From sequence record MN655998.1: DNA of 64,000 nucleotides, one strand, 5' to 3'. Position numbers and translations under genes: made by a program. Shown here piece by piece: positions 3,205-31,492 of this stretch. Numbering within the stretch: the first letter of the stretch is position 1; each line of letters begins with the position of its first letter. The notes under the pieces are model-generated. The model did not search any database. It was not told the DNA's origin and saw only the letters and a list, made by a program, of their open reading frames with translations. The stretch is from Escherichia phage E26.

Positions 3205-5028
3205 TTATGATTGCATCCAAATTTTGCGCTGATCTGCATCTTCACTATAGAGCAAATCGAATAGCTCTTTATAGTTTTCCGGTAACGTGATGATCTCCAT
3301 GACAGGATCGTTGATCACGCGATGATAGTCTGATTCTGTGAGCGATGCTAAACCTTTGATATATCGAATGTTGTAACCTTTGATATTATCTCGGTCGTTC
3401 TCGAAATCTTCTAGGTCATAATACCATCGAACATCATCACCTTTCTTTGGTTCAGCAATGATAATAGGTGTTTTGATAAACCGGATTCGTCCATCTTCGA
3501 ACAATTCAGGCCAACGTGCAAAGAAAGAGATCAGACTAGGTTTAATAGACCCGATCCCGTCGGTATCCGCGTCTGTCATAATCGCAATATTTTTGTATTG
3601 CATAACTTCCAATGCATCAACACCAAATTGCAAACCAGTGATCGCCATGATGTTAAAAATTTCGGCGTTCTTAACGATCTTTGCCTCCGGTTGTTCCCAC
3701 GTTGTAAGAGTTTTGCCTCGCAACGGGAAACCGCCATGTAAATCTTGATCACGTACAGAGATCAGATAGTTGATCGCGGAATCACCTTCCGTCAAAAACA
3801 GGGTAGTTTCTGCGTCAGTTCCAATAAGGTTAGCTTTAACATGTTTTGCTACCTTAGCCCGTTTCGCTGCCTTTGCTGCCTTAGTCGCTGCCGCTTTATC
3901 GGCTGCCTCTTTGCGTGCCAGGACTACAGCAATAATAGGCATGATAATGTTTTCTTTCTTCGCAATGACTTTAGCCAGCTTTTTAAAATCAAGATCAATA
4001 TGACGCTTGATATCACCAGTCGGGTTAGTCAAGCGTTCTTTTGTCTGTGAATCAAAACGAAGGTTAGGCAATTCACGAACAATAAGAATACAGGTCAATC
4101 CAGACTTAACCGCAGCTTTAGTAACATCAACCTTATATTCTTTCTTGATTCGTTTTACAATCTCTTCACAAAGATCATCTGTCACGTAGTCTACGTGTGT
4201 TCCCCCGTTTTTGGTAAACAGACCATTAGCAAAGGATACTGATTTAAAACCTTCTCCCTCGACCGCAGGAACTAGGGCAAGTGAGAAGTTTTTATCCTCG
4301 ATGACAAACGGATCATCATTGTATAGTTTAGCATAATCCTTAAACTTGCTGGTTATCTTTTTGCCATTAAACTTAAACGTGATCTTAGGAAAGATTACAC
4401 TTAAGGAATACATACGGTCACAAATTACATCTGAAATTTCTTGTGACATGATCATGCCTTCAAAATGATCGAAATCAGGGCAGAATGTAACCTTAGTCCC
4501 TTTCAGCTTTGATGGTTTAGATGACCAACTAATATTTTCAGCGCCATTGGTGCATTGTACGGTCAATTCATTCTCACCATCGCATGTCACACCAGTAAAC
4601 CACGATGAGAAAAATGATGTGAGCGCGCTTCCTATCCCATTCATCCCCATAGTGACACGATTTGTATCATCAAAGTTAGATCCTGCTTTAGCTCGTGTCC
4701 ATGCAGCCACTGGTTGGGGAATCTGTTTCCCTTCTGGTGTAGTGACTATATGTTGTGGAATGCCGCGACCGTTATCTGTTACCGACACAATGTTATCTTT
4801 GATATCTACGCTAATAACATTAGCGTATTCAAAATTAGTGCGGATCGCTTCGTCTACAGAGTTGTCGATAATCTCATCAATAATTTTAACTAGACCGGGA
4901 ACATATGATACTTTGGTCCATTTTCCAAAAAGGAAACGATTATGTGATTCATAAGTCGTTGACCCTATGTACATCGAAGGTCTTTTAAGACAGTGAGCGC
5001 GATCATCTAACAGCAAAAATTCAGACAT
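3205..5028 (-). CDS. 39: DNA topoisomerase II large subunit, GyrB-like ATPase + Toprim (gp39 and gp60 fused)
   Basis: 607 aa; PSMYIGST, DNGRGIP, MTDADTDG motifs; length matches fused 39+60 of non-T4 T-evens. Confidence 0.9.
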   Translation of the reverse strand: MSEFLLLDDRAHCLKRPSMYIGSTTYESHNRFLFGKWTKVSYVPGLVKIIDEIIDNSVDEAIRTNFEYANVISVDIKDNIVSVTDNGRGIPQHIVTTPEGKQIPQPVAAWTRAKAGSNFDDTNRVTMGMNGIGSALTSFFSSWFTGVTCDGENELTVQCTNGAENISWSSKPSKLKGTKVTFCPDFDHFEGMIMSQEISDVICDRMYSLSVIFPKITFKFNGKKITSKFKDYAKLYNDDPFVIEDKNFSLALVPAVEGEGFKSVSFANGLFTKNGGTHVDYVTDDLCEEIVKRIKKEYKVDVTKAAVKSGLTCILIVRELPNLRFDSQTKERLTNPTGDIKRHIDLDFKKLAKVIAKKENIIMPIIAVVLARKEAADKAAATKAAKAAKRAKVAKHVKANLIGTDAETTLFLTEGDSAINYLISVRDQDLHGGFPLRGKTLTTWEQPEAKIVKNAEIFNIMAITGLQFGVDALEVMQYKNIAIMTDADTDGIGSIKPSLISFFARWPELFEDGRIRFIKTPIIIAEPKKGDDVRWYYDLEDFENDRDNIKGYNIRYIKGLASLTESDYHRVINDPVMEIITLPENYKELFDLLYSEDADQRKIWMQS

Positions 5029-5034
5029 ATTATA

Positions 5035-5778
5035 TCATTCTCCGTCAGTTCGTTTCAGGTATTCCAACGCTGCATATAGTCTTTGCGGATCGTCTTTGAA
5101 CATTCCTAATCCGGCGTTACATTTTCCACAAAGAACACCTCTTATCTTACCAGTCTTATGATTATGGTCAAGATGTTTCCACTTTTGGCGTTTTCTCTCG
5201 CCGCATCGTTCATTTATGAATTTTACACCGCATATCTCGCAATTGTCAACTCTGTCTAAAATTTCTAGCGCTTCTCGTTTTGTTATTTTTATACCATCTT
5301 CGGCGTGGTGATATGGTCTATCTAGTTCTCGTTCTCGTTTCTCAAACAATCGACACTCATCAGAACAATACTTTTGAGATGCGTTTATTGCAACAAATGG
5401 TTTACCGCATTTAGCGCATTCTCGTTCAATCTTTATGTTTTGTGTCTGATCCAACGATGCGCAACGAGAACAGCAAAATTTATGATAGCCTCTAGAGTAT
5501 GTATGATAATTTACAGGATTTGGGCATCTTGCACATTTAACTATTCCTGTTATTCCGTGGCGCAATCTATAAACAGCCTCGTTATATGGTTGTTGATTTC
5601 TGAGACCTCCATTACAGAACTTAAACTCATTCCTTATAATCTGAAATTCCGCAGGATACAATTTTTCCATTTCTGGAATTTTATTTTCTTTAAAAAGATT
5701 TGAGTTTAGTCTATTTCCGCTTTTCGCCTCCAGAACATCAACAATAAACTTTTTGATGTTCACTTTTTCTCTCTCCAA
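5035..5778 (-). CDS. HNH (endonuclease VII-type) homing endonuclease-like protein with N-terminal Cys clusters
   Basis: C-terminal HLDHNHKTGKIRGVLCGKCN motif; several CxxC pairs; track start is TTG, true start may be GTG at 5763. Confidence 0.65.
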   Translation of the reverse strand: MEREKVNIKKFIVDVLEAKSGNRLNSNLFKENKIPEMEKLYPAEFQIIRNEFKFCNGGLRNQQPYNEAVYRLRHGITGIVKCARCPNPVNYHTYSRGYHKFCCSRCASLDQTQNIKIERECAKCGKPFVAINASQKYCSDECRLFEKRERELDRPYHHAEDGIKITKREALEILDRVDNCEICGVKFINERCGERKRQKWKHLDHNHKTGKIRGVLCGKCNAGLGMFKDDPQRLYAALEYLKRTDGE

Positions 5779-5870
5779 TACATAACATAACCATAACTTA
5801 CTGCAACCGCCACAAAGACGGCTGCAACAATCATATTAAAAATTGAGTGATTGTCAAGTATATGACTCAT
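5760..5870 (-). CDS. small membrane protein (36 aa, below track cutoff)
   Basis: Hand-translated MSHILDNHSIFNMIVAAVFVAVAVSYGYVMYWREKK; ATGA stop-start overlap with upstream gene. Confidence 0.35.
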   Translation of the reverse strand: MSHILDNHSIFNMIVAAVFVAVAVSYGYVMYWREKK

Positions 5871-6711: not shown

Positions 6712-6954
6712 TTAAATATCCTCCGCGATATGCCGGAACAACTCCAGATCGTTTTTATCCAGAATGAAACCGCTACAATCAATAATCCCGTTACCGTAAT
6801 TATCGGTTAACAGTCGTTCCGTTGCCATGTATGCGCGTACTTTGTTGTTAAAATTCATTACATGTTGTGCATAGTCACAATGAATCTTTTGACGGTTCCA
6901 CGCGACAATTGATTGTAGATGTATTACATTAGCCATATCATTAATAACAACCAT
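6712..6954 (-). CDS. hypothetical protein
   Basis: ORF tiling; no motif. Confidence 0.45.
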   Translation of the reverse strand: MVVINDMANVIHLQSIVAWNRQKIHCDYAQHVMNFNNKVRAYMATERLLTDNYGNGIIDCSGFILDKNDLELFRHIAEDI

Positions 6955-6955
6955 A

Positions 6956-7123
6956 TCAAAAACCTCTCTTAGTGAAATGCTCGATCATTTTATTGATACA
7001 TGCAGCTTCACTATCGCCGGACACGTTCCAGCCGTATAGACCCCATCTAAAGCACATGGTAACAGTTCCATTGTGACGGCTTACCGTCACATCATTAAAT
7101 TCTGGGATACTTCGCATAATCAT
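6956..7123 (-). CDS. small hypothetical protein (55 aa, below track cutoff)
   Basis: Hand-translated ORF with GAGGAA RBS; fills gap between dda and downstream gene. Confidence 0.35.
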   Translation of the reverse strand: MIMRSIPEFNDVTVSRHNGTVTMCFRWGLYGWNVSGDSEAACINKMIEHFTKRGF

Positions 7124-7133
7124 AATAATTTCC

Positions 7134-8525
7134 TCAAATATAGTCTACTCGATACCTCGCACGGGTAACACCCACATATAATAACTGCATTGCCAATTCA
7201 AAGTCAACATTGTCTGTACACATGCAAGGAGTATACAGGAACACGCGGTCTACGCTGATCCCTTGTGACTTATGAATGGTGCAAGCTGGTAATGCTTTTA
7301 CATTCAAGAACATACGCTTCATCGTCCAGAATGAATCCCAATCTGGTTTAAATTTTGGATTCTCTTTCTTCATTTCGCGATATTGTCCGGCGACCGTATT
7401 CAGATAGATAGAGAAAATGTTCTTCTGACGTTGTTCTGTCAGAATGTTGATTTCTACTAAATCCGGTTTATCTGTAGTGATTCCGACTGCATCTAAACCG
7501 ACTTTCTGATTTAGGATTTCTTTGTCTTCGTCATCATCGACGCTTTCCACTTTCAGAGTATAGCCTAAAACTGGTTGCGGATCTACCCCCGTGCAACGTA
7601 ATGTAAATTCACGCGGTATAACCTCTTTAACCCGGATCATCTCACCATTGTTAAAAATAACATTGGGAATTTTCTTCCCGCGTTCATCTCGCAGATATTC
7701 GATCAACGGTTCCTGAGTAACCAGAATTTCATCTACAATCACTGGTTCATCGGTGTTATAAACGCGCTTGCGCACAATTTCATTGAGTTTTTCGACGCTC
7801 TTGTTAGTGTAAGCCAGAATACGGTTTTCTAGAAGGTCTTCCGGCGTTTTAACGGTTTCGAAATAATGCTTCATAAACTCCGGCAGAGTTGAGCTATGGA
7901 ATACACCCTCGTTACCGCACTGCTTTTCGAATACCCATTTACCGTTACGGACAGCGGTCGCCACATCAATGATCGGTGCATTAGATCGTTTAATTTCTGT
8001 CAACTCCACGTTTTGAAAATTTTCATCCGTGAAGAAAGGAGAAATTGACGTTGCACCGCTCGGATCAACTGGTCGTAACTGGTGCGGATCGCCAACTGCA
8101 ATAACAACAATTCGACCGTTGATACTCTTCATGAGAATATCAAATAGTTTCTTATCGACCATACTCGCTTCATCAACAATGATGATCTGAACATCATCTA
8201 GCTTAGGAGTATCTTTTTGCTCAAATACTTGAGTATCTTCATAGTTGGTCGGGTTTAGTCGCAGTAGTGCATGTAAAGTAAATGCTTGACGACCTACCGC
8301 TTTACTCAAAACTTTTTTAGCCTGGTGGGTAGGCGTTGCCAAAACCACACCAGTTACACCACGGCGGACCATTTCCTGAACAATGAATTTCATCATTGCG
8401 GTTTTACCAGTACCAGCCGCACCCCGGACAGTTGTATGCTTCTTTTGTTCAATGCGTTTCATTAGAACATCAAAAGCATGTTTTTGCCCGTCTGTTAACA
8501 TATCGAAAGTTAATACTCTGCTCAT
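7134..8525 (-). CDS. dda: Dda DNA helicase (SF1)
   Basis: Walker A GAAGTGKT; KRSNAPIIDVATAVRNGKW; LYVGVTRARY C-terminus as in T4 Dda. Confidence 0.9.
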   Translation of the reverse strand: MSRVLTFDMLTDGQKHAFDVLMKRIEQKKHTTVRGAAGTGKTAMMKFIVQEMVRRGVTGVVLATPTHQAKKVLSKAVGRQAFTLHALLRLNPTNYEDTQVFEQKDTPKLDDVQIIIVDEASMVDKKLFDILMKSINGRIVVIAVGDPHQLRPVDPSGATSISPFFTDENFQNVELTEIKRSNAPIIDVATAVRNGKWVFEKQCGNEGVFHSSTLPEFMKHYFETVKTPEDLLENRILAYTNKSVEKLNEIVRKRVYNTDEPVIVDEILVTQEPLIEYLRDERGKKIPNVIFNNGEMIRVKEVIPREFTLRCTGVDPQPVLGYTLKVESVDDDEDKEILNQKVGLDAVGITTDKPDLVEINILTEQRQKNIFSIYLNTVAGQYREMKKENPKFKPDWDSFWTMKRMFLNVKALPACTIHKSQGISVDRVFLYTPCMCTDNVDFELAMQLLYVGVTRARYRVDYI

Positions 8526-10228: not shown

Positions 10229-10753
10229 TTAGTAGCCGCGTTCTTGACGGGCGAAGTTTTCAGCATTTTTCAGATAGTACAGAATAAAGAGTTCTTGAGC
10301 GTCAATACCCAGCGGGATCATCTTTGACAGAATGAAGTGGATCGCGTCCACAAATTCAAATTTCACTTCAAGCTGATCTTCAGGTGACAGTTCAGAGAAT
10401 TTACGCGATCGCGCTTCTCCGTGGTTCTTTTTCCACATTTTCCAGATTGCACTTGCATCTTTACCATTGGACATTCCACCCAGCGATGTGTAAAGCTCTC
10501 GTGTTTCGTCTGCGATAGCGTCATCCATCCGCTGCATCCAATCCAGCATTTCACCGCAAGTCTCTAGCTTAGTTGGATTTGGGACCCAATCAAATTTTTC
10601 GGATAATGCAACCTGCAAACCAGTTTGCATTTCGAGCATCACCTGAAACGGATCTTTACCTTCTGCAATCGCGTGATGATATGCGGCGATTGCCGCGTTA
10701 ATATCTTTTTCGTTAACCAGACCAGCACAAGAATTAAATTCTGACATATTCAC
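10229..10753 (-). CDS. 56: dCTP pyrophosphatase (MazG-like dCTPase gp56)
   Basis: DPFQVMLEMQ...KLET...SPEDQLEVKFEFVD...YYLKNAENFARQERGY matches T4 gp56. Confidence 0.85.
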   Translation of the reverse strand: MNMSEFNSCAGLVNEKDINAAIAAYHHAIAEGKDPFQVMLEMQTGLQVALSEKFDWVPNPTKLETCGEMLDWMQRMDDAIADETRELYTSLGGMSNGKDASAIWKMWKKNHGEARSRKFSELSPEDQLEVKFEFVDAIHFILSKMIPLGIDAQELFILYYLKNAENFARQERGY

Positions 10754-12714: not shown

Positions 12715-13350
12715 TCAATCGAATGTAGAAAGCAACTGTTTTGTTTCTTTCAGTTGTCGTTCAAGATTTTTGCGTTTCTCTTTAAGTTGCATTTTAGCAT
12801 TATTTCGCTCTCTTGTAACCTCTTTATCAATGCTCTTATTCCAGTTATCAATATCAGAATAAGTTGGCATACCCAATTCTAAACCTAATGCGGTTGGATG
12901 CAGGGTAACAGTCCATAAACCGCTAATCTTCTTAAATAGGTCTGGGTGTAGTGTACTATCTACATCTTCCGGTGTCAACTCTTTTTCTTCTTTCAGTGGT
13001 GGGTTCTCGTCATATGGTTCCAGTGCATTTACTTTAATATCAGATACCTCATCAAAGAATCCGCGTACATCCGCAGGAAATACACAAGCAATTTCCCAAC
13101 CGTGTTCACGCAGAGAAGTAATATTTTTCACTTCCCCACCATGTGCGATAATTGACGTAACATTACCATCAAGATCCACAGAATTTACAAGAAACGGCTT
13201 ATCGTCTGTCAGATCATTATAAAATTGTGCTTCGGCGGTAGTCATCTCCAGAAAAAGGTCACGAATAGGTCGACCATCTGGTGCATTGCCTTCCTTGAGA
13301 GTGTAGATTCGACTTACGATCCATTTTGGCGGTAAAGTATTAGCGATCAT
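12715..13350 (-). CDS. hypothetical protein
   Basis: ORF tiling; AGGAG RBS. Confidence 0.5.
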   Translation of the reverse strand: MIANTLPPKWIVSRIYTLKEGNAPDGRPIRDLFLEMTTAEAQFYNDLTDDKPFLVNSVDLDGNVTSIIAHGGEVKNITSLREHGWEIACVFPADVRGFFDEVSDIKVNALEPYDENPPLKEEKELTPEDVDSTLHPDLFKKISGLWTVTLHPTALGLELGMPTYSDIDNWNKSIDKEVTRERNNAKMQLKEKRKNLERQLKETKQLLSTFD

Positions 13351-13400: not shown

Positions 13401-14813
13401 TTAGAAAGTCATATTATTTGCTAGCTCGTCGAGTTTTTCGCGTTTCTCGGCTTGCTGTGCGCTTTGTGGTTTAACTTGTGCATTCTCCTGATCTGCGATC
13501 TGGTTTGGAACTTCATACCAACGCTGATTTCCTTTTTTCACACCAACGTTAAACCGTGAATAATAGTTCTTATCACCGTAACGAGACTTGATCTGCTTCA
13601 TGAGTTGGACGCCCATTTTAGCCAGGTCTTCGGTTTCGATAACACCCAACATAAAGTCGGCTGTAGCCGGAAGACCTGCTGATTCAGCGGTATCACTCAT
13701 GTTAAGGTCGGAAGCATCCCAACCCGCGCGGGTAGTCTGTGCCGCAGTCCAACCAACAACATCCCACTTAACAAAAAATCCGCGAAGTTCTTCCGCAATC
13801 GCTTTAACGAGAGTGTAGCTATTCTCAGAGTATACACGCAAGCGAGACGATGCGCAAATCCCCAGATAATCAACAATCACAACATCAGGTTTAAACTGTT
13901 TCTTGAGTCGCAATTCATTCATTAACGCCTCAAAGTGATTGGAGTTTGCGCCACCAGTCGGATATTGCTTGATCATCAATTTTCCAACCGGACGATCTCC
14001 GATCTTCTTATTCTTAACACGCTTCATACGTGCGGAATATTCCGCAAAAGAAACATTACCATTATCCAATTCATCTAAGGTAATGTCAAGTAAGTTTGCA
14101 TCAATACGTTTGGCTACGACATGCTCTGCCATCTCCATTGAGATATACAATACATCATAACCACATTCCATATAATCCGCAGCAAGAGAACACAATCCAA
14201 GCGATTTGCCAACGTTTACACCAGCAAGCAACACATTTAGAGTTTTTCTTTCCGCCCCTCCTTTCGTGATTTTATTCAACATAGGCAGTTTAAACGGGAT
14301 CTTATTCGCTTTAGTCTGATATAGCAAGAATCGTTTTTCAAAGTCATTAAACCAGTCATGACCTACATCAGAATCAAACGTAATGGATAGTGCTTCCTGC
14401 ATGATCTCAGGAATAGCTCCCTCACTCGGCAATTTCTTATTCTGTTTCTCTTTTGGTAGTTGTGCGTTCGCCTGAATCTCTAGCGCCCGTGACATTGCAT
14501 TATACATGGCACGGTCACGAATAAATTTTTCGGTTTCCTTCATTAACCAATCAAGGTCTTCCGGTGTATTCTCCAGCGAATCGAGAAGAGTTTTAGCCCC
14601 TTCATATGTTGTCTGATTGCCTCTCTCCTTGTCCAAAGCAATCTGTAATGCAGTTGGCGTAGGAATATTGGAATATTCGTCTACGTGCTTTTTAATCAGC
14701 TTATAAATCAGTTTTTCTTCGTCTTCGGTGAAGTAGTCCGCTTTAAGGTGAGGCCATACATTCGTAAAGAATGCGCCATTGTAAATCAACTGTGAAAAGA
14801 TAGTTTTAATCAT
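13401..14813 (-). CDS. 41: replicative DNA helicase gp41 (DnaB-like)
   Basis: Walker A GVNVGKS; DnaB-family C-terminal domain; 470 aa; synteny 61-41-uvsX. Confidence 0.9.
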   Translation of the reverse strand: MIKTIFSQLIYNGAFFTNVWPHLKADYFTEDEEKLIYKLIKKHVDEYSNIPTPTALQIALDKERGNQTTYEGAKTLLDSLENTPEDLDWLMKETEKFIRDRAMYNAMSRALEIQANAQLPKEKQNKKLPSEGAIPEIMQEALSITFDSDVGHDWFNDFEKRFLLYQTKANKIPFKLPMLNKITKGGAERKTLNVLLAGVNVGKSLGLCSLAADYMECGYDVLYISMEMAEHVVAKRIDANLLDITLDELDNGNVSFAEYSARMKRVKNKKIGDRPVGKLMIKQYPTGGANSNHFEALMNELRLKKQFKPDVVIVDYLGICASSRLRVYSENSYTLVKAIAEELRGFFVKWDVVGWTAAQTTRAGWDASDLNMSDTAESAGLPATADFMLGVIETEDLAKMGVQLMKQIKSRYGDKNYYSRFNVGVKKGNQRWYEVPNQIADQENAQVKPQSAQQAEKREKLDELANNMTF

Positions 14814-15127
14814 ACATAGCCCCCAACTACACGCATAACAAAGGTCTTGAGTTTATACCAGAAAGTTTCTTTTTTCAACTTTTCTTCTGCTTCTTTGATC
14901 TGCGCGGTTAACGCCTTAATGACGTGTGGATATACCACATCACGATCTGACGGCGTGGAGTAGTCGACCACAATACCTTTAGTGTCTGGATCGTATTCAA
15001 CATTATGAATATAGACAATATGATGTTCTCCCTCTTCATCAACAATTATCATTTCCTGAATAACTGTCTTCATTGCTTCTTGAATCAAGCCGTGTGCTTC
15101 TTCTAAACTTGTTGGCTTATTATCCAT
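14810..15127 (-). CDS. hypothetical protein (T4 gene 40 position)
   Basis: ORF tiling; synteny only. Confidence 0.45.
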   Translation of the reverse strand: MDNKPTSLEEAHGLIQEAMKTVIQEMIIVDEEGEHHIVYIHNVEYDPDTKGIVVDYSTPSDRDVVYPHVIKALTAQIKEAEEKLKKETFWYKLKTFVMRVVGGYV

Positions 15128-15182: not shown

Positions 15183-16253
15183 TTATGCTAACATATCTTC
15201 GATTTCTTTGTCAACTGCTTCGTCGCTGATCACTTGCCCCAGCTTATAATGATCGTTGATTGCTTCGTTAAACTTATCGTTTGTCAGAAGTGGTTTCCAG
15301 AACTCAATGCTATTGGTTTCTTTAGCACGGAACTTGCGTTCTTCGGTTTCCATCTCTCCGGTCTCAGTATTCAGGATTGAACGAGAATACCAGCCGTTTG
15401 ACGGTTTCACTACCCAGCCTAACTCTACAGCCAACTCCAACAAACCGGAATAAGGATCGATGCCACCGCTAAATGTTACGCTAATCGGGAACTTAGATTT
15501 TTCTTTAACGGTTCGTGATTTTTCCGCATTCAGGATAAAATCATAACCAGTAATTTCGGTTCCTTCTTTCTGCTGACGACGACCAATAATGAAAACTTCA
15601 TTGGCTGAATACATCGCTCCAGTACCGCCGGACATAACGGTCTTACTAAACATTTCTTGCGTTTCGTAAGTGTGGTTAATAGCGATGCACGGGATATCAT
15701 TCATAGTCAGATACGGCGTAACCATACGGAACAAGCCTTTAAGTGCTTTCGCTCGCGTCATATCCTGTGCGGATTTCTCATTAATCGCGTCTTCAACTTC
15801 TTTTTTACTTGCTAAGTTACCGATTGAGTCAATAAAGATGATCACTTTATCTTCACGGGTAATTTGCTCAAGCTGGTTCATGATTTCAAATTTAAGTTCT
15901 TCGATGTTCTTGATTGGAACATGCACTACGCGATCAGGATCTACGCCCATAGATTCCAGATAAGCGGGCGTAATACCGAACTCAGAATCAAAGAACAAAC
16001 AAGCCGCATCGGGATTCTGTTTCATGTATGCACTAACACAAGTTAATCCCATGTTTGATTTAAAGTGCTTAGACGGACCAGCAAAGAAAATCAGACCAGA
16101 TTGAAAGCCTTTTTTAAGATCACCGGAAAACGCAATATTCAGCATCGGGATCTTAGTGCGAGTATTTGTTTTTTCGTTAAAGAAGCTGGATTTAGACAGT
16201 ACCGCAGTAGTTTTCAGGGTAGAGTTCTTTTTCAGTTTTTCCAGTACAGACAT
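15183..16253 (-). CDS. uvsX: UvsX RecA-like recombinase
   Basis: RecA-fold motifs (FFAGPSKHFKS Walker A-like, FFDSEFG); 356 aa. Confidence 0.9.
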   Translation of the reverse strand: MSVLEKLKKNSTLKTTAVLSKSSFFNEKTNTRTKIPMLNIAFSGDLKKGFQSGLIFFAGPSKHFKSNMGLTCVSAYMKQNPDAACLFFDSEFGITPAYLESMGVDPDRVVHVPIKNIEELKFEIMNQLEQITREDKVIIFIDSIGNLASKKEVEDAINEKSAQDMTRAKALKGLFRMVTPYLTMNDIPCIAINHTYETQEMFSKTVMSGGTGAMYSANEVFIIGRRQQKEGTEITGYDFILNAEKSRTVKEKSKFPISVTFSGGIDPYSGLLELAVELGWVVKPSNGWYSRSILNTETGEMETEERKFRAKETNSIEFWKPLLTNDKFNEAINDHYKLGQVISDEAVDKEIEDMLA

Positions 16254-16264
16254 TATTAATACCT

Positions 16265-16492
16265 CTATTCAGTTAATCCGTAATACTTTAATTGCTTCAT
16301 TGTTATTCGATCTTTGTAGTGCTCTTGAATTAACTTTTTCATCGCATCAACATCGATCGTCACAAATACTTCGTTGCTGTGATTTCCGTGAACTTTCTTG
16401 AAATGCTCTATGCCTTCCTCACGTTCACGTTTAATCTTTTCAATGTCTCTCATAGTATATTTCTCACGTTGGCGGGTATCGTCACCCAACAC
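16265..16492 (-). CDS. hypothetical protein
   Basis: Only ORF between uvsX and 43. Confidence 0.45.
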   Translation of the reverse strand: MLGDDTRQREKYTMRDIEKIKREREEGIEHFKKVHGNHSNEVFVTIDVDAMKKLIQEHYKDRITMKQLKYYGLTE

Positions 16493-16514
16493 CCGCCATT
16501 ATACACACATTATC

Positions 16515-19193
16515 TTAAATGTCAAACAGGTCCGTAAGCGATGCCACCTTTTCATATTGCAGCTTTGCAGCCGTGGTAATGTTCTCAAGCGGTTTGACGA
16601 AAGTCTTATTAAACAACAAAGGCCAGTCTAACCACTTCAACACTTCTGATTCAATTTCTGGCGGAATACGAGTACCAGACAACCAACCAAAACAGATTTC
16701 TCCAAACGGATTTCGATCTTTAAGCGGTACAATCATAACCTTCTCGCCTTCACGAATCGGATCTAGTCCGAATTTTCTGGCATTACGATTATAACACAAT
16801 ACACTCTTAACCGCATACGGACAACCCTTAATCGGATACCCGTTTGAATCGCTGTATTTCTGTAGGTTGTTTGCCGATGATACCGCAGCAACCTCAAGAT
16901 AATCAAGTCTTCTAAATTCTTGCTCAAAAATACCGTAGTATTCCTGTAATGACTCTTCCCCTTCCTGCAACATACGGCGAATACATTCTTTCAGTGATTT
17001 CTGACATGCTTTAGGTGTAGAACTACGTTGTGTTTCCAAGCCCATGATTTTTAGCTTAGGTTCAGCAAAGCGCGTTCCTTCCATATCCCAAACATTAAGA
17101 GCATAACGCTTTTTACCAGTCCAGAATCCACCGATACCCGCAGATTTCAATGGAGGACCAGCAATTGCCTCACGGTCCATAAACATCAAGTGCTCATAGT
17201 TGTTCATGTACTCGCATAACTCGCGATATCCCTTGTCGATAATAGGTTCCATTCGATGTTTACCGAAATTATCAAGGAAGTCAACAAGTTTTTCGGTATC
17301 GTCGAAACGGTCTTCCCCGCCAACCTTATCAACAACATTGTTAACCAGCACATAAACGGAGTCAGTATCACAATAACGAACATATGCAAAATCAGTTGTT
17401 CCGCAAAGCTCGTTTAAGTATTCGTTAATCTTACGCTCAATCCACTGAATTGCAAGCTGACCGAACAGTGTGATCGCACTAGCGTTACGGAGATCATAAA
17501 AACGGAATTTAGGATTCCCCAACGCACCATAAAGGGAGTTGATCAAAACTTTTCGGGAAAGCTGGTTTGTATTGCACAAGATCGACTCGTCTTTACATTC
17601 TTCCAGCAATTTTTCTAGGGTATCTTTGCTTAATTCCAAAAGCATAGATTTAAACGCTTCATCGAAGTCATGACGCACTTCAACGCTATAGCTAATGGTT
17701 CCCCCATAAACATGATTTTCATCGTGTAGAATCGCTTTACAGAGTTCAGCATTGCGATCACATGCCAACATCATGTTTTTGTACTGCTTACGCTGATCGA
17801 ATACCTTTTTAATCTCAATCGGTACGATACCATGAATATCTTTTCGATACATCCATCCGTTAGGCGAGCAAGAATACTCATCACTCGGACGCGGGGCAGT
17901 TTTATTGATATACTCGTGCATCGGTGCAGCATCAAAAGATCCAGCGATAGTTTCGGGTGAAATATTTACCTGCCTAATTATTGAAGGATACAAACTCGTG
18001 AGATCGAAGCTCATCATCCAACGGTAAGCATTCGGCACAGGTTCTTTTACAAATGCGCCTGGATACGTCTGCTTAGGCTGTATCTTATTTTCCGGTACTA
18101 CTTTACCCTCTGCTTTCAGAGATCCGAAGATAATAGCATCCCATACTTTCATCGGATTATAAACATGGTTAAATTTAATCTTTGCATAGAAACATAGGCT
18201 ATACACCAGATCAATAAAACCACGCTTTTTATCAATCGCCAGCACACGGTCAACGTCGCCGATGTTATAATCGATGTAAAGTTGATGGTTGTCATCACGC
18301 AATTTCTTTAATGGACCATCATAATCAACCTTACCGATTCCTGTCTCATATTCAGCAACATAATCTAATGCATATGTTGGTTGAGTCGTAAAGCTAAATT
18401 TCTTGTACAGGTCAATATAATCAAGGCTTTCGATCCCCATGATCGTAAATGCTTCACGCTCGTTGCCAAAATCATCCTGTGAGATTCGGGATTTAATCTT
18501 ACCGCACGGGCTTAATCGGTTTGCCGTTCGACTTCCAAACTTATTACTGATACGCTTAATGATATATGGAATATCGAATGTTTCTGTGTTCCAGCCAGTG
18601 AAGCCAACTGGTCGGTTTTCCTCAAAGAATCGGATGTATTCTAATAGCAATTCATCTTCTGTATCATAGACGTTATAAACAACGCGCTCTACAATATCAG
18701 GTCGAAGAATAGATTTGCTTGCTTCCCAGATTTCACCGTTCTTTCCTTTCAAATCAAATACAAAGAAACGATCATGTACGGAATCATAATGCGTAATTGC
18801 ATCGATAGGATATTTCGCTTCTTCTGGTTTAGGAAATTCAGGTGCAGTGACCTCAATATCAACCCATGCTACACGGATTTTATTTCGGTCATATCGAATC
18901 TCTCCTTTATACGTATCGGACAGATAGGAGATGATAAAATCATCCATCCCTAGTGCCTCTTGCCCCATCTCCCCCATCTTTTTACGCCATTTGTTGGCCT
19001 CGTTCATAGATGGGAATTTTTTAGCAATGCAAGGCTTGCCATAGATATCTTTATAATTCGTAACCATACCAGGCGCGGCATGATGAAATAAAGTTGGCGT
19101 ATATTCAACGTAACGCTCTTGCTCTTGTCCAGCATCATCAATATAACGCTCGTAGATCTTATCACCTACTCGCTCACATGACAGAAAATACAT
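16515..19193 (-). CDS. 43: DNA polymerase gp43 (family B)
   Basis: SLYPSII, YGDTDS-like YCDTDSVY, exonuclease motifs; start at Met 11 after AAGGAG RBS. Confidence 0.95.
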   Translation of the reverse strand: MYFLSCERVGDKIYERYIDDAGQEQERYVEYTPTLFHHAAPGMVTNYKDIYGKPCIAKKFPSMNEANKWRKKMGEMGQEALGMDDFIISYLSDTYKGEIRYDRNKIRVAWVDIEVTAPEFPKPEEAKYPIDAITHYDSVHDRFFVFDLKGKNGEIWEASKSILRPDIVERVVYNVYDTEDELLLEYIRFFEENRPVGFTGWNTETFDIPYIIKRISNKFGSRTANRLSPCGKIKSRISQDDFGNEREAFTIMGIESLDYIDLYKKFSFTTQPTYALDYVAEYETGIGKVDYDGPLKKLRDDNHQLYIDYNIGDVDRVLAIDKKRGFIDLVYSLCFYAKIKFNHVYNPMKVWDAIIFGSLKAEGKVVPENKIQPKQTYPGAFVKEPVPNAYRWMMSFDLTSLYPSIIRQVNISPETIAGSFDAAPMHEYINKTAPRPSDEYSCSPNGWMYRKDIHGIVPIEIKKVFDQRKQYKNMMLACDRNAELCKAILHDENHVYGGTISYSVEVRHDFDEAFKSMLLELSKDTLEKLLEECKDESILCNTNQLSRKVLINSLYGALGNPKFRFYDLRNASAITLFGQLAIQWIERKINEYLNELCGTTDFAYVRYCDTDSVYVLVNNVVDKVGGEDRFDDTEKLVDFLDNFGKHRMEPIIDKGYRELCEYMNNYEHLMFMDREAIAGPPLKSAGIGGFWTGKKRYALNVWDMEGTRFAEPKLKIMGLETQRSSTPKACQKSLKECIRRMLQEGEESLQEYYGIFEQEFRRLDYLEVAAVSSANNLQKYSDSNGYPIKGCPYAVKSVLCYNRNARKFGLDPIREGEKVMIVPLKDRNPFGEICFGWLSGTRIPPEIESEVLKWLDWPLLFNKTFVKPLENITTAAKLQYEKVASLTDLFDI

Positions 19194-19225
19194 AATATAA
19201 ACTCCTTCACTTACGAAAGACACTC

Positions 19226-20218: not shown

Positions 20219-21207
20219 TATACGAACTCCAATTCAACCATTAATTGCATTAACAAAAAGACAATGTGAATCTCTTTATCAGCCGCGTGCGCAAACATCT
20301 GATTATTTTCACCGATAATCTCAGTGAGACGAATAATAGAAGCTGGCTTAACTTGAGTATACAACTCATTATAAAGTTTCTTGACAAATTGAGCGTATGT
20401 ATTGGTATATCGTGGCGCAAGTTTACGCACATTAGCAAACTGTTTAGTTTTAAGTGCTTCCACCACATCGGTTACTTCGGTATTGCTACTTTCGATAACC
20501 ATGCTCAATACGCCAGCATCAATTTTACCGTGTTTTGCGTAACGGTCCAAGAGTTTCATTACGCGCCGGAAATCTGGGAAGTTCTGCTTAACCAGTTCCG
20601 CCAATACGCGCATTTCTTCTACTGGAACACCTTCTTTATCAAGAATTGCTTTACACCGGACGATCATTTCTTTCATCATGCGAAGCTGATCATCTTTAGT
20701 CGGAGATCCAAACGTGATTGGATCAAATCGAGATCTCAACGCTGGGATAATACCTTCTAGATCGTTTGCTGTGATAATGAAGGTCACATTGTTTGAGTAT
20801 GCCTCAGAGAAACTACGCAAGTGTCTTTGAGCATCAGCCAGCCCCGCTCGGTCATACTCATCGATAATAACAACTTTGCCTTTTTCTCGTTTTTCTTCAT
20901 CGAGTGATACACTCTGCGCAAAGCGTGTAATCTCATCGCGGATAAAATCAATCTTACAATCTGCGCCGTTAACAAACAGATAATCAACACCCACATCTTC
21001 ACAAAGCGCCTTAGCAACGGTTGTTTTACCAGTACCCGGCGATGGGCTATGCAGAATCATTGAAGGGATTCGGCCTTGTTTCACGATCTGCGCGAAGATC
21101 TTTTTATCTGCTTCCGGCAGAATACATTCAGAAATTGATTTAGGACGGTATTTCTGTTCCCACTGAAACTCATTTTCATTAACACTCAGCATATAATCAC
21201 CTCTCAC
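20218..21207 (-). CDS. 44: clamp loader ATPase gp44 (AAA+)
   Basis: Walker A SPSPGTGKTT; Walker B IIDEYD; SRF-like SRC motif. Confidence 0.9.
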   Translation of the reverse strand: MRGDYMLSVNENEFQWEQKYRPKSISECILPEADKKIFAQIVKQGRIPSMILHSPSPGTGKTTVAKALCEDVGVDYLFVNGADCKIDFIRDEITRFAQSVSLDEEKREKGKVVIIDEYDRAGLADAQRHLRSFSEAYSNNVTFIITANDLEGIIPALRSRFDPITFGSPTKDDQLRMMKEMIVRCKAILDKEGVPVEEMRVLAELVKQNFPDFRRVMKLLDRYAKHGKIDAGVLSMVIESSNTEVTDVVEALKTKQFANVRKLAPRYTNTYAQFVKKLYNELYTQVKPASIIRLTEIIGENNQMFAHAADKEIHIVFLLMQLMVELEFV

Positions 21208-21220
21208 AAGTTACATCATT

Positions 21221-21244
21221 AAAAAGGGGAGTTTTATACTCCCC
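21221..21244 (-). terminator. rho-independent terminator after gene 45
   Basis: GGGGAGT-loop-ACTCCCC followed by UUUUU. Confidence 0.5.
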
Positions 21245-21256
21245 ATAATCATTATA

Positions 21257-21946
21257 TTAGTCGGTGTAGCTGGAGTCAAGGTCACACGCGATCATGTAAG
21301 ACACGGTTTCACTTGCCAACCATACAGCCTTACGGCGAGTGAAGCTCAATTTATAATCGCCGAAGTCAGTAGCAACCAGTTTCATGTTATCTTTACGAAT
21401 AAAGAAATGGAAGTCGGCGGTTCCGGTATATTCGCCCATATCAAGACAAAACATCTCATTCGGATTGTTTTTGTCAATCTCTTCCCAGCCTTTGATCATC
21501 AGACGACCATCAATCGGAAGAAATTCAAGGCGATCCACTTTAAGCTGATTGCTCATTTTCATAAGCTGTTTCAGATCGTCGTTGCTCAGTTCGTAATCTA
21601 CATCGCTTGCAGGTGGAGTAACTCGGCCTTTCGGTGATACGATAGCAGCAGCACTAGCACCAGGATAATTAATTTTCAGACGATCATTAGACACACGAAT
21701 GTTTCCGGTGCGGTTATCAACCGTAATATCTGCTTCATCGCCTACCAGATTCAGAATACCCAAGAAAGAGTTAAGATCATAGATCCCAATTTCGTGTTCC
21801 AGTTCTTGATTCAGAGTCGCTTCACCATATACAACGTTTGTCATGTTTTTGGTGATCAGGACGTTTCCTTTTTTCAGGATGATACCTGGGTTAATAGCGG
21901 AAAAGTTTTTCAGGGTAGCAATGGTTTCTTTAGTCAGTTTCATCAA
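21257..21946 (-). CDS. 45: sliding clamp gp45
   Basis: 229 aa; LKNFSAINPGI..., IYDLNSFLGIL as in T4 gp45. Confidence 0.9.
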   Translation of the reverse strand: MMKLTKETIATLKNFSAINPGIILKKGNVLITKNMTNVVYGEATLNQELEHEIGIYDLNSFLGILNLVGDEADITVDNRTGNIRVSNDRLKINYPGASAAAIVSPKGRVTPPASDVDYELSNDDLKQLMKMSNQLKVDRLEFLPIDGRLMIKGWEEIDKNNPNEMFCLDMGEYTGTADFHFFIRKDNMKLVATDFGDYKLSFTRRKAVWLASETVSYMIACDLDSSYTD

Positions 21947-26071: not shown

Positions 26072-27097
26072 CTAACTTTTTGCGCTATTTACTTCGGCTA
26101 AAAGCTCATCGGAGATACGCTTAACTGCCGCAAGTTCTTCCGGTTCTAGGTTTTGTTCTTCCAGATATTCATAGACCATCTGAATAGTGCTTTTAACTTC
26201 AATAACACCTGTTTCCTGTGATGCGCTACTCTCCAGCTTATGGACCACTTTTAGCTTGTGTACAACGGCCTCTAACGCGCTTTCTAACTTAGTTAACCCA
26301 TTATCAGCGACCGTTGCAATTAGGCGCACACTAAGCCCTTTAAAGCGTTCTACATCGATTTTATCATCTGACGGGTAAGTGATACGCACATGATAAGTTT
26401 TGTCATTCTGGATAAACTCCTTTTTGTGTGTATCTGTATCGAATACCCAAAAACCACGCGGATCATTTTCGTCGCCAGCCGTTAGTGTGTATGGTGTGCC
26501 AATATACGTTACGTTACCGCCATCACTGATAGTATGAAAGTGACCGGAAAACACTTCACGGTATTTCTTGAGGAAGTCCGCGCTATAACCTTCGGATTTT
26601 AACCCTTTATAGAAATAGTAGCCGGACAATTCCCAATGGCCTACACAATATTCGCTGAATGAATTTTGAATAAACTCTAAAACCTCGGATTTATTGTCAT
26701 CACAAAACCACGGGAACAGGTCGAATGATACCCCATCAAAGGTAACTGTTTCTGGCTTATCAATAACCTTAATGCAATCATACTGGCTTAACACTTCACG
26801 CGGCGCGTTAGGCTGGATCTTATTGCGTTTAAACATATCATGATTCCCGACCGTGATATAACAGGTGATTCCTGCCTCTTCCAGTAATGGGATGACCTTA
26901 GTACGGTTAAATTTCATGGTTTCATGTGTGATAGCCTTGCGACAATCAAACCAATCCCCTGTTTGAATCCATATCTTAATACCATTTTCTTTAGAATAAT
27001 CAACAGCTTTCTTGATCGTGTCTAAAATATACTCATGCACCCACGGATCATCGCCACCGATACCAGTATGCAGATCACCCAAAAGCAAAATTTTCAT
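26072..27097 (-). CDS. 47: recombination endonuclease subunit gp47 (Mre11/SbcD-like)
   Basis: Calcineurin-like phosphoesterase motifs (GDLH, GDWFD, GNHD, GHxH). Confidence 0.9.
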   Translation of the reverse strand: MKILLLGDLHTGIGGDDPWVHEYILDTIKKAVDYSKENGIKIWIQTGDWFDCRKAITHETMKFNRTKVIPLLEEAGITCYITVGNHDMFKRNKIQPNAPREVLSQYDCIKVIDKPETVTFDGVSFDLFPWFCDDNKSEVLEFIQNSFSEYCVGHWELSGYYFYKGLKSEGYSADFLKKYREVFSGHFHTISDGGNVTYIGTPYTLTAGDENDPRGFWVFDTDTHKKEFIQNDKTYHVRITYPSDDKIDVERFKGLSVRLIATVADNGLTKLESALEAVVHKLKVVHKLESSASQETGVIEVKSTIQMVYEYLEEQNLEPEELAAVKRISDELLAEVNSAKS

Positions 27098-27187
27098 AGT
27101 CTCTTCCTCTCTTCGTTTTCGATGCTCTCACTATATCATAGAAAAATAAAAAGGGAAACCCCTTTCGGAGTCTCCCTTATAAAGCCA

Positions 27188-27475
27188 TTACAGCATACTT
27201 AATACCGTTTGCCGTGTACTAATCCACATAGCAGAAAGCAGTTCTGGCGTGTGTGGCTGTTTGTAGATATCACGTAACTTTCCGATAGCGTAGATATACG
27301 CATCACGGTTATCATCGATGATAGCTTGTTCAGCCCACCGCTTAAGGCGTGCAATCTCTCGCGAGTTCTTACGCAAGATCTTTTCCGCTTTCTTAGCGGC
27401 TTTAGCCTCTAGTTCTGCTTGTACTTTGTCTACTTCATTCACTGCAATCTTGTCATGCTGTTCATCGTAAGTCAT
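27188..27475 (-). CDS. hypothetical protein
   Basis: ORF tiling. Confidence 0.45.
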   Translation of the reverse strand: MTYDEQHDKIAVNEVDKVQAELEAKAAKKAEKILRKNSREIARLKRWAEQAIIDDNRDAYIYAIGKLRDIYKQPHTPELLSAMWISTRQTVLSML

Positions 27476-27476
27476 G

Positions 27477-27704
27477 TTATTTTACCTCTGGGATATAATC
27501 AATTATTAAAGAAAATTCATCTTCTGATACATTATAGCTATGTGAGATTGTACCCGTCAAGACCTCAAGATCCGGTGATTTGATATTGCACGGATCGATA
27601 ATCACCGGAACGCCGCAATCTCTCAAAAATAATTTGGCGAAATACGGCACGAGGTCAGTTTCAAACTCTGCTTCTTCCAGCAAACGGGAAATGTTAATTT
27701 TCAA
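27477..27704 (-). CDS. hypothetical protein
   Basis: ORF tiling. Confidence 0.4.
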
Positions 27705-28227
27705 TCACATAAAATTGGTCCAGGCTAGGCAATTCCTCAGTCAATACATCTTCAACCTTTGGCGCTTTCGGTTTATTGACCGATTCCTCGTAGTTGTTGA
27801 TTTTATCGTAAATGTCCTGTATGAATGCCTCATCAGCAATCTGGCACATATCAGCGTCGCGTTCGTCATATACATGATGCACAAAATATTTGTATTTTGC
27901 GGCTGTCGCTGTTCTCTCTTTTTTAATGCGCTGTACAAAAGCATTAAAGCACGCTTGCGTGATGTAAGCATGAGGATTTTTATACTTTGTCTCGTCAAAA
28001 TTAATCAAACCCTTGACCGCCGCTTCGATTCCGTCGTCGATCATTTCTTCGCGCCATGTTTGACTATAACCAGAAAAGTTAAAACGACGTGATAGATTTT
28101 TAGAGATTTGCATAATTGCTAGGCCGATTTGATCGCTCATTGGAACTTGCCGACCTTCTGCTGCAATTTGTTGTTTCCAACGGCAAATTTCTTCGTAAAG
28201 CTCTTTATTGTTTACATAATCAGACAC
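27694..28227 (-). CDS. 55: late transcription sigma factor gp55
   Basis: [23 protein letters not shown]...[22 protein letters not shown] matches T4 gp55. Confidence 0.85.
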
Positions 28228-28267: not shown

Positions 28268-29737
28268 CTATTCCCCATTACCATTATACTTTCTTTGCTT
28301 AGTTATCCACACTCTAACCATCTCTACTGATTCACCATCAGACGGATCAAGAGTTTTTCCTTTTTTCTTCATGCGATACTTAAATCCGTTAAATCTTGCA
28401 TTCTCTTGCTCGTTAAAGTCGAACATCTTTTTAAATGATTTTCTCCCTTTACGCTCACCACATTCTAGCGGAATCATTCGGTCTGTTATTACATTGGCAT
28501 TAGGTAGAAACGTTTTTAGATAATCCACCAACGCCCAATCAGGAACATATAGATTAACATTCTCCTTGCTCTCGTTGTCTCTCAGGTTACAACGCAAACA
28601 TAATTGAAATGCTGGTTCCAGATAATCAGACACATGACGCGCTTTCAAAAACTCGTTTGTCGGGAGATCACAACTATTAGCAAGACCTTTTAAAATATCA
28701 ATCTCCCATCGTTGAGGGTTAAAGCTGAACATCACAGCAACATTTTTATGATGAATGTAAGAGTTAAGACCATAAGATCCGTAAGGTATCCGCTCACCAA
28801 TACCATTTGTGCACGCTTCACGGTCCCGATTCACGGTATAAATGAAGTCATCGCCACATTCATTTTTAACCATATCAACAAGACGTTCAAAGGTATTGTT
28901 TGTTTCTGACTGGTGACGCGACCAGCGTTCGGAGTCAGTCATAAGGATGATGTTAACTCTATCTGTATTTTTATACTCTTTGAAATATAGTCTGGATTCT
29001 AGCGCACTCGGAACAAAATCGCAATTTGCATAGTATCGTAGATACTTCCCACTATATGTATCAAAGAGATTTGCACATGCTATCGTAACCTTTTTAAAGT
29101 CTCCCCACGTACCGTGTTTGTTATCGTTCAAGAAAACAATTTTCGACCCATTCTTCCGGTGTCCTTCGTTATGTTTTACCATAACGTTGATTTTCTTCTC
29201 TAATAACGCCTCATAAAGCCCTCTAAGAGAAGAATCGATCATATCAGTACCATCCTTTGCACTTTCTATCTTTTCTTTGATAGCGGCCTTCTCAGAGTCT
29301 TTTAGAACTAAGTTCTGTAGGCATTCCGATTCGTCGGCGATTGGTTCGCAATGCTTCGTGATAAGTTCAAGATTAGACTTAAACGGATACTCATTAAATT
29401 CAACCAGTTGAGGAACTTCATCAATGTAAAGAGCATATTCACCAAACATTTTTGAACGTTCCATATTAGATAACGCTGTATGTGTAATGAATATCACATC
29501 AGCACCGTCTTTAACTGATTGCATTATCGACGCTTGCACTGTCTTAAGGCTTCTTAGTCTTGTGCTATCGATCAAGACAGCACGACCGCCCATTCTTTTA
29601 AACTTATTGTAAGATTGTTCACTTAAAACACGAGATGGCGAAGCAATAACCGCTTTTTCTTTTGTCTCTAGGACGTGGGAAAGTATAGCATCAGTTTTCC
29701 CCGCCGCTGGCAATGCGATTAATGTTTCAATCTTCAT
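28268..29737 (-). CDS. P-loop NTPase of unknown function with Cys/Lys-rich C-terminus
   Basis: Walker A-like ALPAAGKTD, Walker B-like LYIDEVPQ about 95 aa later; not recognised as a T4 core gene. Confidence 0.5.
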   Translation of the reverse strand: MKIETLIALPAAGKTDAILSHVLETKEKAVIASPSRVLSEQSYNKFKRMGGRAVLIDSTRLRSLKTVQASIMQSVKDGADVIFITHTALSNMERSKMFGEYALYIDEVPQLVEFNEYPFKSNLELITKHCEPIADESECLQNLVLKDSEKAAIKEKIESAKDGTDMIDSSLRGLYEALLEKKINVMVKHNEGHRKNGSKIVFLNDNKHGTWGDFKKVTIACANLFDTYSGKYLRYYANCDFVPSALESRLYFKEYKNTDRVNIILMTDSERWSRHQSETNNTFERLVDMVKNECGDDFIYTVNRDREACTNGIGERIPYGSYGLNSYIHHKNVAVMFSFNPQRWEIDILKGLANSCDLPTNEFLKARHVSDYLEPAFQLCLRCNLRDNESKENVNLYVPDWALVDYLKTFLPNANVITDRMIPLECGERKGRKSFKKMFDFNEQENARFNGFKYRMKKKGKTLDPSDGESVEMVRVWITKQRKYNGNGE

Positions 29738-30204: not shown

Positions 30205-30463
30205 AAATCGCCCTCAGTTCTTTATAGCCTCCAATGTGCTCGTTGTCAATGAATATCTGGGGGTATACAAACCGGAGGCTCTTTGAGTTTAGCCTCCCCG
30301 CCAGCTCTTCAATCATATCACGGTCGGGAATAATGTCAACCCCGACCTGCTTGAATACTGGTTTAAGTGTATACGGAATACCCAGATCATCCAGTAGCTT
30401 CATTGCACCAATACAACCATAACAATGATAAGCCTCTTTCGGTATACCGTATATCTCGATCAT
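30194..30463 (-). CDS. nrdH: glutaredoxin-like protein (NrdH-like)
   Basis: CYGC active site, 89 aa, glutaredoxin fold pattern; adjacent to nrd genes. Confidence 0.65.
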   Translation of the reverse strand: MIEIYGIPKEAYHCYGCIGAMKLLDDLGIPYTLKPVFKQVGVDIIPDRDMIEELAGRLNSKSLRFVYPQIFIDNEHIGGYKELRAIYDY

Positions 30464-31480: not shown

Positions 31481-31492
31481 AATATAGTCCCC

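Follow-up and report, generated by a model that had tools for sequence, protein, structure and literature searches.

We examined the junction between uvsX and gene 43 in a stretch of 64,000 nucleotides from Escherichia phage E26 (MN655998.1), referred to here as the window. Positions 16254-16514 were found to make up the entire gap between the two genes (261 bp), since uvsX has its start codon at 16253 and gene 43 its stop codon at 16515-16517, within a region where coding is dense on the minus strand. The gene 41 helicase (13401-14813), gene 40 (14810-15127) and the 356-aa UvsX recombinase (15183-16253; 64% identity to T4 UvsX, E = 2e-152) lie on one side, all on the minus strand. On the other side lies gene 43 on the same strand (16515-19193; 55% identity to T4 gp43, E = 0), which encodes an 892-aa DNA polymerase when read from the ATG at 19193, with regA, 62, 44 and 45 beyond it. 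The names of both uvsX and gene 43 agree with the RB49 annotation. It was noted that the mechanically called ORF of gene 43 begins at a GTG at 19223. The gap itself contains a single small minus-strand ORF together with a strong early promoter that is followed by a hairpin. In the T4 reference record this gap is occupied by segA, b-gt, 42, imm and imm.1. A preliminary description of this DNA had stated that T4 carries beta-gt, gene 42 and imm at this place and that all three are missing here. The T4 record agrees with the first statement and adds segA and imm.1, and the second was borne out by tblastn, for which the best E value in the window was 0.22.

The same description had placed one 75-aa ORF between uvsX and gene 43, of which the single ORF was retained and the length was revised. 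The 75-aa reading (16265-16492) is obtained only when translation is taken from the GTG at 16492. Because the 62 positions of phrog_12120 (E = 7e-42) cover residues 14-75 of that reading and RB49 annotates a protein of 62 aa (RB49p025), the start is most likely the ATG at 16453, giving a genus-specific gene at 16265-16453 on the minus strand. This ATG is preceded by a weak Shine-Dalgarno-like GAG. No credible Pfam match was found for the small ORF; Arginase (E = 0.047) and DUF2115 (E = 0.076) were returned for the 75-aa reading and were dismissed as noise far under their gathering scores. The AlphaFold model of the 62-aa protein comprises three helices at low confidence (pLDDT 66, pTM 0.32). 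The product is strongly hydrophilic, with a GRAVY of -0.99, and contains no membrane segment; since Imm of T4 is a membrane protein, we rejected the product as an Imm analogue. We tentatively take it for a small early protein whose expression is driven by the promoter described below. Three plus-strand ORFs (16156-16401, 16379-16537 and 16398-16631) lie antisense to conserved genes, and we regarded them as spurious.

The conservation of the junction was assessed with a 1001-bp query, which gave one full-span match in each of the 58 Krischvirus records of a phage collection, those of SAP and TB34 included. The junction length was equal in all 58 genomes, and the SAP and TB34 junctions were approximately 97% identical to that of the window, which stems from neither phage. 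The 62-aa protein is 98-100% identical at the amino acid level across Krischvirus genomes. Together, the single-piece matches and the near-identical protein mark the uvsX-43 junction, as judged by sequence, as a fixed character of the genus and not a peculiarity of a single isolate.

A promoter and stem-loop cassette at the junction

We found a sigma-70 early promoter (TTGACA-16 nt-TATAAT) at 16498-16525 on the minus strand that matches the consensus at 12 of 12 positions. Its -35 hexamer sits inside the final codons of gene 43, and an early promoter is annotated at the equivalent place in RB49. Directly after the -10 box follows a G/C-rich stem-loop on the same strand (16471-16497; GGCGGGTGTTGG-loop-ACCCGCC), which is present in both the minimum free energy and the centroid structures. 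The 81-nt context of the hairpin folds at -23.8 kcal/mol (z = -3.8), with none of 200 shuffles folding equally well, and the 45 nt downstream of the -10 box fold at -21.5 kcal/mol. Further elements composed of a promoter and a G/C hairpin were noted on the same strand near 5857, 10221, 21279 and 30339.

Promoter-early stem-loop (PeSL) cassettes have been described in RB49 and phi1 (Arbiol et al. 2010, PMC2839356; Comeau et al. 2014, PMC4122927), and in both phages they border gene 43 on both sides (Arbiol et al. 2010, PMC2839356). The promoter and hairpin at the junction evidently match these cassettes, since a near-perfect sigma-70 promoter stands beside a stem-loop built from a G-run and a C-run, directly upstream of a small ORFan. 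Two differences from the described cassettes were noted. First, the junction ORF (phrog_12120) and the junction length are invariant in the 58 genomes and not variable, and the junction therefore gives no sign of recent shuffling. Second, the hairpin is placed in the 5' leader, after the -10 box. Without a T-run, its sequence gives no evident sign of a terminator function.

The interval between genes 47 and 55

The second site considered was the interval that corresponds to the position of alpha-gt in T4. It is bordered on the left by gene 47, which encodes an SbcD-like nuclease subunit (26072-27097, minus strand; 56% identity to T4 gp47), and on the right by the gene for the late sigma factor gp55 (27694-28227, minus strand; 61% identity to T4 gp55). 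Two small minus-strand genes lie between them. The first (27188-27475) encodes a 95-aa homologue of a-gt.4, supported by Pfam DUF2654 (E = 1.3e-22), phrog_951 and a tblastn match at 44% identity (E = 1e-12). The second (27477-27704) encodes a homologue of a-gt.5 of approximately 75 aa with an uncertain start codon; it matches phrog_1169 (E = 1.4e-27), carries the name a-gt.5 in the RB49 annotation, and matches Pfam DUF5491 at E = 5.5e-4, under the gathering score. In T4, a-gt.4 and a-gt.5 sit between alpha-gt and gene 55, and the T4 genes missing here are 47.1, a-gt, mobB, a-gt.2 and a-gt.3. The preliminary description had stated that positions 27098-27693 lack alpha-gt and hold only two small unrelated ORFs. 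The absence of alpha-gt was upheld by tblastn, and the word unrelated has to be withdrawn, both ORFs being homologues of T4 genes from the same place.

Identity of the phage and collinearity with relatives

The window can be assigned with confidence to a Krischvirus, that is, an RB49-like "pseudo-T-even" coliphage, and it spans the arm from rIIA to gene 2. For a 4.5-kb region around the junction, megablast gave identities of 99.4% to ELT3 and 97.6% to RB49 and phi1; against MIZ4, the first 25 kb of the window reached 97.6%. The gene order of RB49 is that of the window from position 1 (rIIA) onward, with identities of about 96-98% depending on the segment. ARAGORN found no tRNA genes in the window, and its G+C content is 40.3%; the absence of tRNA genes and a G+C content of approximately 40% are traits of the genus (PMC7552041). 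When every T4 gene from 14-44 kb of the T4 genome was compared with the window by tblastn, the replication core was found to be collinear with that of T4 at 33-65% identity. T4 MotA had no tblastn match in complete RB49 or in the ELT3 segments that complement the window, and the lack of motA is a further trait of the genus (PMC7552041).

All differences seen between the window and RB49, phi1 and JSE were at the level of the isolate. Compared to RB49, it contains an extra ORF of 247 aa with an Endonuclease_7 domain (5035-5778), it is missing the HNH endonuclease RB49p040 that lies between gene 47 and a-gt.4 in RB49, and a segment at about 31.2-31.9 kb has been replaced. The gene content is otherwise that of RB49, phi1 and JSE, with genes 1 and 56, cd, td and, outside the span of the window, denA kept, with 42, alpha- and beta-gt, imm, alc, denB and arn missing, and with no tRNA genes and a G+C content of about 40%. 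The length of the uvsX-43 junction, its 62-aa ORF and its early promoter are likewise common to these phages and the window.

Search for modification and cytosine-discrimination genes

The preliminary description had asked for gene 42 and glucosyltransferase homologues to be sought beyond the window, and when this search was carried out in the relatives RB49 and ELT3, no such homologues were found. We queried the window, complete RB49 and the ELT3 segments complementary to the window by tblastn with T4 gp42, beta-gt, alpha-gt, imm, gp56, alc, cd, denA, denB, arn, ndd and motA. For the first run the database also contained T4 DNA, which served as a positive control and was matched at 100% by the T4 proteins searched. 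Matches in Krischvirus DNA were obtained for gp56 (49% identity), cd (56%), denA (49%) and a-gt.4 (44%). The denA matches were found in RB49 and ELT3, outside the span of the window, and the ELT3 denA is seemingly split over two reading frames.

In the window, RB49 and the ELT3 segments, the queries beta-gt, alpha-gt, imm, denB, ndd and motA gave no match at E < 1, save for one beta-gt match in the window (28050-27721, E = 0.22), which falls inside gene 55 and was dismissed as chance. Matches to arn (E = 0.03-0.06) were short and within a baseplate gene, those to alc (E = 0.5) comprised only 24 residues, and both were likewise attributed to chance. The gp42 query had no tblastn match in the window and in RB49 and ELT3 only grazed td (E = 4e-4 and 0.012). 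None of the hydroxymethylcytosine (hmC) or glucosylation genes is present in the curated RB49 annotation. Among the 20 larger unannotated ORFs of the window, searched against Pfam and PHROG, no glycosyltransferase, thymidylate synthase-like, deazapurine or cytosine-modifying domain was detected. The sole recognised DNA-modifying enzyme in the window is a Dam-type N6-adenine DNA methyltransferase (39824-40636, minus strand; Pfam MethyltransfD12, E = 1.5e-29; 47% identity to T4 Dam), and RB49 has two further methyltransferase-like genes outside the window's span.

As the only gene of thymidylate synthase type that was found, td was examined as a possible disguised dCMP hydroxymethylase. Its product is unusually long (410 aa), and alignment with E. 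coli ThyA and T4 gp42 placed an in-frame insertion of approximately 130 aa within it. The identity of one residue in this family, Asn or Asp, sets the specificity for dUMP or dCMP. The td product keeps the catalytic Cys (CHPFVQFYV) and has Asn at this position (LGLPFN), where gp42 has Asp (FGFRND). With the Cys and Asn of the ThyA type, it is by sequence a thymidylate synthase and not a hidden hydroxymethylase, and the latter reading was rejected.

The comparison with the T4 system for hmC and glucosyl-hmC thus has two sides. Of its components, gp56, gp1, denA and cd have homologues, and the replication genes on the flanks stand in T4 order, whereas gp42, both glucosyltransferases, denB, alc and arn are missing from the Krischvirus genomes searched. 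The T4 hmC system as a whole is therefore not present in them. For the rest of the genome of this isolate, we infer the same absence from RB49 and ELT3, whose identity to the window is about 96-99%.

The gene 56 homologue and nucleotide metabolism

A gene 56 homologue lies at 10229-10747 on the minus strand and encodes, from its ATG, a 172-aa dCTPase/dUTPase of the all-alpha NTP pyrophosphohydrolases, in keeping with the dCTPase reported in the preliminary description. It aligns with T4 gp56 over its full length at 49% identity (E = 1e-60; tblastn 10232-10747, E = 5e-51). Profile searches likewise placed it in the family of dimeric dUTPases, MazG and T4 dCTPase, with Pfam dUTPase_2 (PF08761) at E = 3.9e-5 and 24.4 bits against a cutoff of 22.9, and phrog_173 at E = 4e-37. 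In the alignment with T4, the acidic motifs of the family are conserved (DETRELYTSLG, EVKFEFVDAIHF and YYLKNAENFARQ), with DE..RE and E..D patterns that we take to bind metal. Codon differences from RB49 were three synonymous and one non-synonymous, which are small counts. Because of the end-to-end alignment, the acidic motifs, the Pfam score above gathering and the mostly synonymous differences, gp56 of the window is very probably active. A sequence search of solved structures gave no match, and the literature search yielded no biochemical study of a gp56 from Krischvirus. The gene 1 dNMP kinase is also encoded in the window (61611-62267, minus strand; Pfam DNMK, E = 3.5e-68).

Gene 56 has been recorded in nearly all T4 relatives, where its role is given as "provides dUMP for dTMP synthesis" (PMC2993671, Table 4), and it is retained among them with or without gene 42 (PMC2993671, PMC12115623, PMC8056088). 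The preliminary description had read gp56 as a sign of an hmC-based lifestyle, and this reading does not survive the near-universal presence of the gene regardless of gene 42. The most likely function of gp56 here would be the supply of dUMP for dTMP synthesis.

Gene pattern and cytosine chemistry in Krischvirus

The absence of the hmC genes is real and is ordinary for Krischvirus, and it was already known. Descriptions of the RB49-type pattern, in which the hmC genes are gone and 56 and denA are kept, go back to the RB49 genome work, and reviews of 2010, 2021 and 2025 tabulate it. Petrov et al. (2010) recorded 42, denB and alc only in the T-even phages, JS98, RB69, CC31, the Acinetobacter phages and some Aeromonas phages (PMC2993671, Table 4), with gene 42, alc and denB missing in the RB49 type (PMC2993671). 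An analysis from 2021 found the RB49 and RB43 groups without genes for non-canonical bases and with homologues of DenA and the dCTPase-dUTPase kept (PMC8056088). In a 2025 survey, the Krischvirus row reads dCTPase present, hmC absent, denB absent, denA present, ndd absent and alc absent (PMC12115623, Table 4), and the gene content computed here is identical to that row.

The chemistry of the DNA has been examined in several members of the genus. HpaII and NheI cut RB49 DNA and do not cut T4 or T4 gt DNA, and RB49 served as the unmodified T4-like control (PMC4041780); it is in routine use as a T4-like phage with unmodified cytosine. In TB34, HPLC-MS detected only canonical nucleosides (PMC13390438). 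In SAP, the same method detected 5-hmdC together with glucosyl- and alpha-gentiobiosyl-hmdC, and the DNA was cleaved by the modification-dependent enzyme BrxU (PMC13390438). SAP and TB34 are 99.96% identical, and SNP analysis gave no lead and no candidate gene; the authors left the pathway unexplained, noting that Krischvirus genomes have no hydroxymethylase or glucosyltransferase genes (PMC13390438). It was also noted that the modification profile of SAP is that of seven Tequatroviruses from the same collection (PMC13390438). Since the profile is the same as that of these co-isolated phages, contamination of the stock or an exchange of samples would, in our reading and not that of the authors, explain the SAP result no less well than a new pathway.

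Interpretation of the retained and missing genes

The preliminary description had left three possibilities, namely modification genes elsewhere in the genome, unmodified cytosine, or cytosine modified in a different way. The second is favored by the genes missing in RB49 and ELT3, the RB49 digests and the HPLC-MS of TB34, and the first found no support in RB49 or ELT3. We consider it highly probable that this is a Krischvirus with canonical cytosine, with a fixed junction of PeSL and ORF, with the T4 hmC genes missing genome-wide, and with gp56 kept for nucleotide metabolism. The absence of the T4 cargo together with alc, denB and arn argues that the phage replicates and packages DNA with ordinary cytosine. 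The T4 cargo at the two sites (segA, beta-gt, 42, imm and imm.1 at one; 47.1, alpha-gt, mobB, a-gt.2 and a-gt.3 at the other) would belong to phages of the T-even type.

In such a phage, gp56 would be kept as part of a nucleotide set that is near-universal among T4 relatives and comprises nrdAB, cd, td, frd, tk, gene 1 and 56. As a dUTPase and dUDPase it would keep uracil out of DNA and give dUMP. Partial hydrolysis of dCTP and dCDP, followed by dCMP deaminase, could in addition direct deoxycytidylate into thymidylate synthesis, which would suit a genome of approximately 40% G+C that is built from the pool of a host with higher G+C. The enzyme may thus form, with Cd, Td, Frd and gene 1, a module for dTTP supply and uracil exclusion. 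It would not act here as an efficient excluder of dCTP, because dCTP is the phage's own substrate. We infer this enzymatic role and its kinetic balance for the Krischvirus gp56 by extrapolation from T4.

A different explanation is that some or all Krischviruses modify cytosine through a pathway that is not homologous to gp42 and the T4 glucosyltransferases, with gp56 still depleting dCTP. The hmdC derivatives and BrxU cleavage of SAP (PMC13390438) point in this direction, many Krischvirus ORFs have no assigned function, and gp56, denA and gene 1 have been kept. However, cytosine is canonical by experiment in RB49 and TB34 (PMC4041780, PMC13390438), SAP differs from TB34 by 0.04% and its authors named no candidate gene (PMC13390438), its profile equals that of the seven co-isolated Tequatroviruses (PMC13390438), and alc and denB, which give dC exclusion its meaning in T4, are missing. 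We therefore regard this explanation as very unlikely. The stronger form, in which Krischviruses and possibly this isolate replace cytosine by means of unrelated enzymes that gp56, gene 1 and denA serve, appears most improbable. It would agree with the lone 2026 description of a Krischvirus, SAP, as fully modified with no cause evident in its genome. If such a pathway were real, its enzymes would be among the many conserved Krischvirus ORFs without assigned function.

Alternatively, gene 56 could be a decaying and functionless relic of an ancestor that used hmC. Its T4 partners 42, alc and denB have been lost, and the apparent split of denA in ELT3 suggests that the old network may be partly dispensable. 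Against this, the gp56 ORF is complete, can be aligned with T4 gp56 from end to end and keeps its acidic motifs, the dUTPase_2 score is above the gathering threshold, three of the four codon differences from RB49 are synonymous, although these counts are small, and nearly all T4 relatives have kept gene 56, other lineages that lack gene 42 among them (PMC2993671, PMC12115623). We consider decay of gene 56 a most doubtful account of these data. That the hmC and glucosylation genes lie elsewhere, in the approximately 100 kb outside the window, is the least credible explanation and extremely improbable: the window is approximately 40% of a genome of about 164 kb, mosaicism is common to T4-like genomes and small indels separate the window itself from RB49, but the complement in complete RB49 and ELT3 lacks gp42, beta-gt, alpha-gt, alc, denB and arn at a T4 control of 100%, the curated RB49 annotation has none of these genes, and the genus surveys list hmC, denB and alc as absent (PMC12115623, PMC2993671).

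The consequences of canonical cytosine in phages of this type are likewise known. Classical restriction and CRISPR can act on such phages, modification-dependent (type IV) enzymes do not target them, and generalized transduction by them is possible.

Modification and nucleotide metabolism genes in related genomes

The junction between uvsX and gene 43 seen in the window was also found to be carried by the genomes of both SAP and TB34. It has been reported that SAP (OZ034687) is fully cytosine-modified, whereas TB34 (OX001802), which is 99.96% identical to it, is canonical; this difference comes without a genetic explanation, and the co-isolated Tequatroviruses and SAP share an equal modification profile (PMC13390438). 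In RB49, two methyltransferase-like genes were identified in addition to Dam, both in parts of the genome that the window does not cover. RB49p143 (genome segment L003, 29465-30304) has an MTS/Eco57I-type, N6-adenine-like fold, while RB49p189 (segment L004, 20890-21606) was matched only by a PHROG "DNA methyltransferase" family and by no Pfam family.

Two further genes were located outside the window in its relatives. The td gene lies at 6870-8102 of RB49 segment L005 and at 20363-21586 of ELT3 segment L006, and the encoded thymidylate synthases of these Krischviruses are 407-410 aa long because of an in-frame insertion of approximately 130 aa between conserved thymidylate synthase segments; neither the catalytic Cys nor the Asn that specifies dUMP is disrupted. 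The denA gene of ELT3 occupies 27175-27599 of L006, where the alignment with T4 DenA is broken between two reading frames, its parts covering 27175-27333 and 27327-27599, and where only an 84-aa "endonuclease II" is annotated. This split denA in the closest relative of the window suggests either a frameshift or an error in the sequencing.

Endonuclease gene indels and promoter-hairpin elements

Comparison with RB49 showed that approximately 0.8 kb of the window in the gene 39/dexA interval (4974-5781) has no counterpart in that phage. Inside this segment falls a 247-aa ORF on the minus strand (5035-5778) that carries an Endonuclease_7 domain at its C-terminal end (Pfam E 1.4e-16); this ORF is probably a homing-endonuclease-type insertion. 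The same comparison showed that the HNH endonuclease gene RB49p040, which sits between gene 47 and a-gt.4 in RB49 (segment L001, 26365-26931), is missing from the window at approximately 27094-27190; this difference, at the former alpha-gt position, is an indel at the level of isolates.

On the minus strand, a near-consensus sigma-70 promoter followed by a G/C-rich hairpin was noted at each of approximately 5857, 10221, 21279, and 30339. A T-run is present in some of them, such as the one at 10221, which lies just downstream of gene 56, and the one at 21279, which precedes gene 45 on its upstream side. These elements look like additional cassettes of the PeSL (promoter-early stem-loop) type.

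Proteins encoded near gene 55 and nrdG

The gene 55/55.2 interval encodes, on the minus strand, a conserved 489-aa protein (28268-29737; phrog_2467, E 9e-175) that is annotated as hypothetical in RB49 and whose N-terminal part includes a region of DEAD/DEAH-like helicase motifs (Pfam E 3.3e-6). Four tandem paralogous minus-strand ORFs of 166-178 aa (30460-32519), none of which has a Pfam family, all gave matches to phrog_5347 (E 1e-54 to 3e-65) and represent an expanded gene family adjoining nrdG and nrdH. Weaker matches to phrog_5347 were also recorded for Dc2 (12715-13350) and for a 392-aa GoF-like protein (36883-38061).
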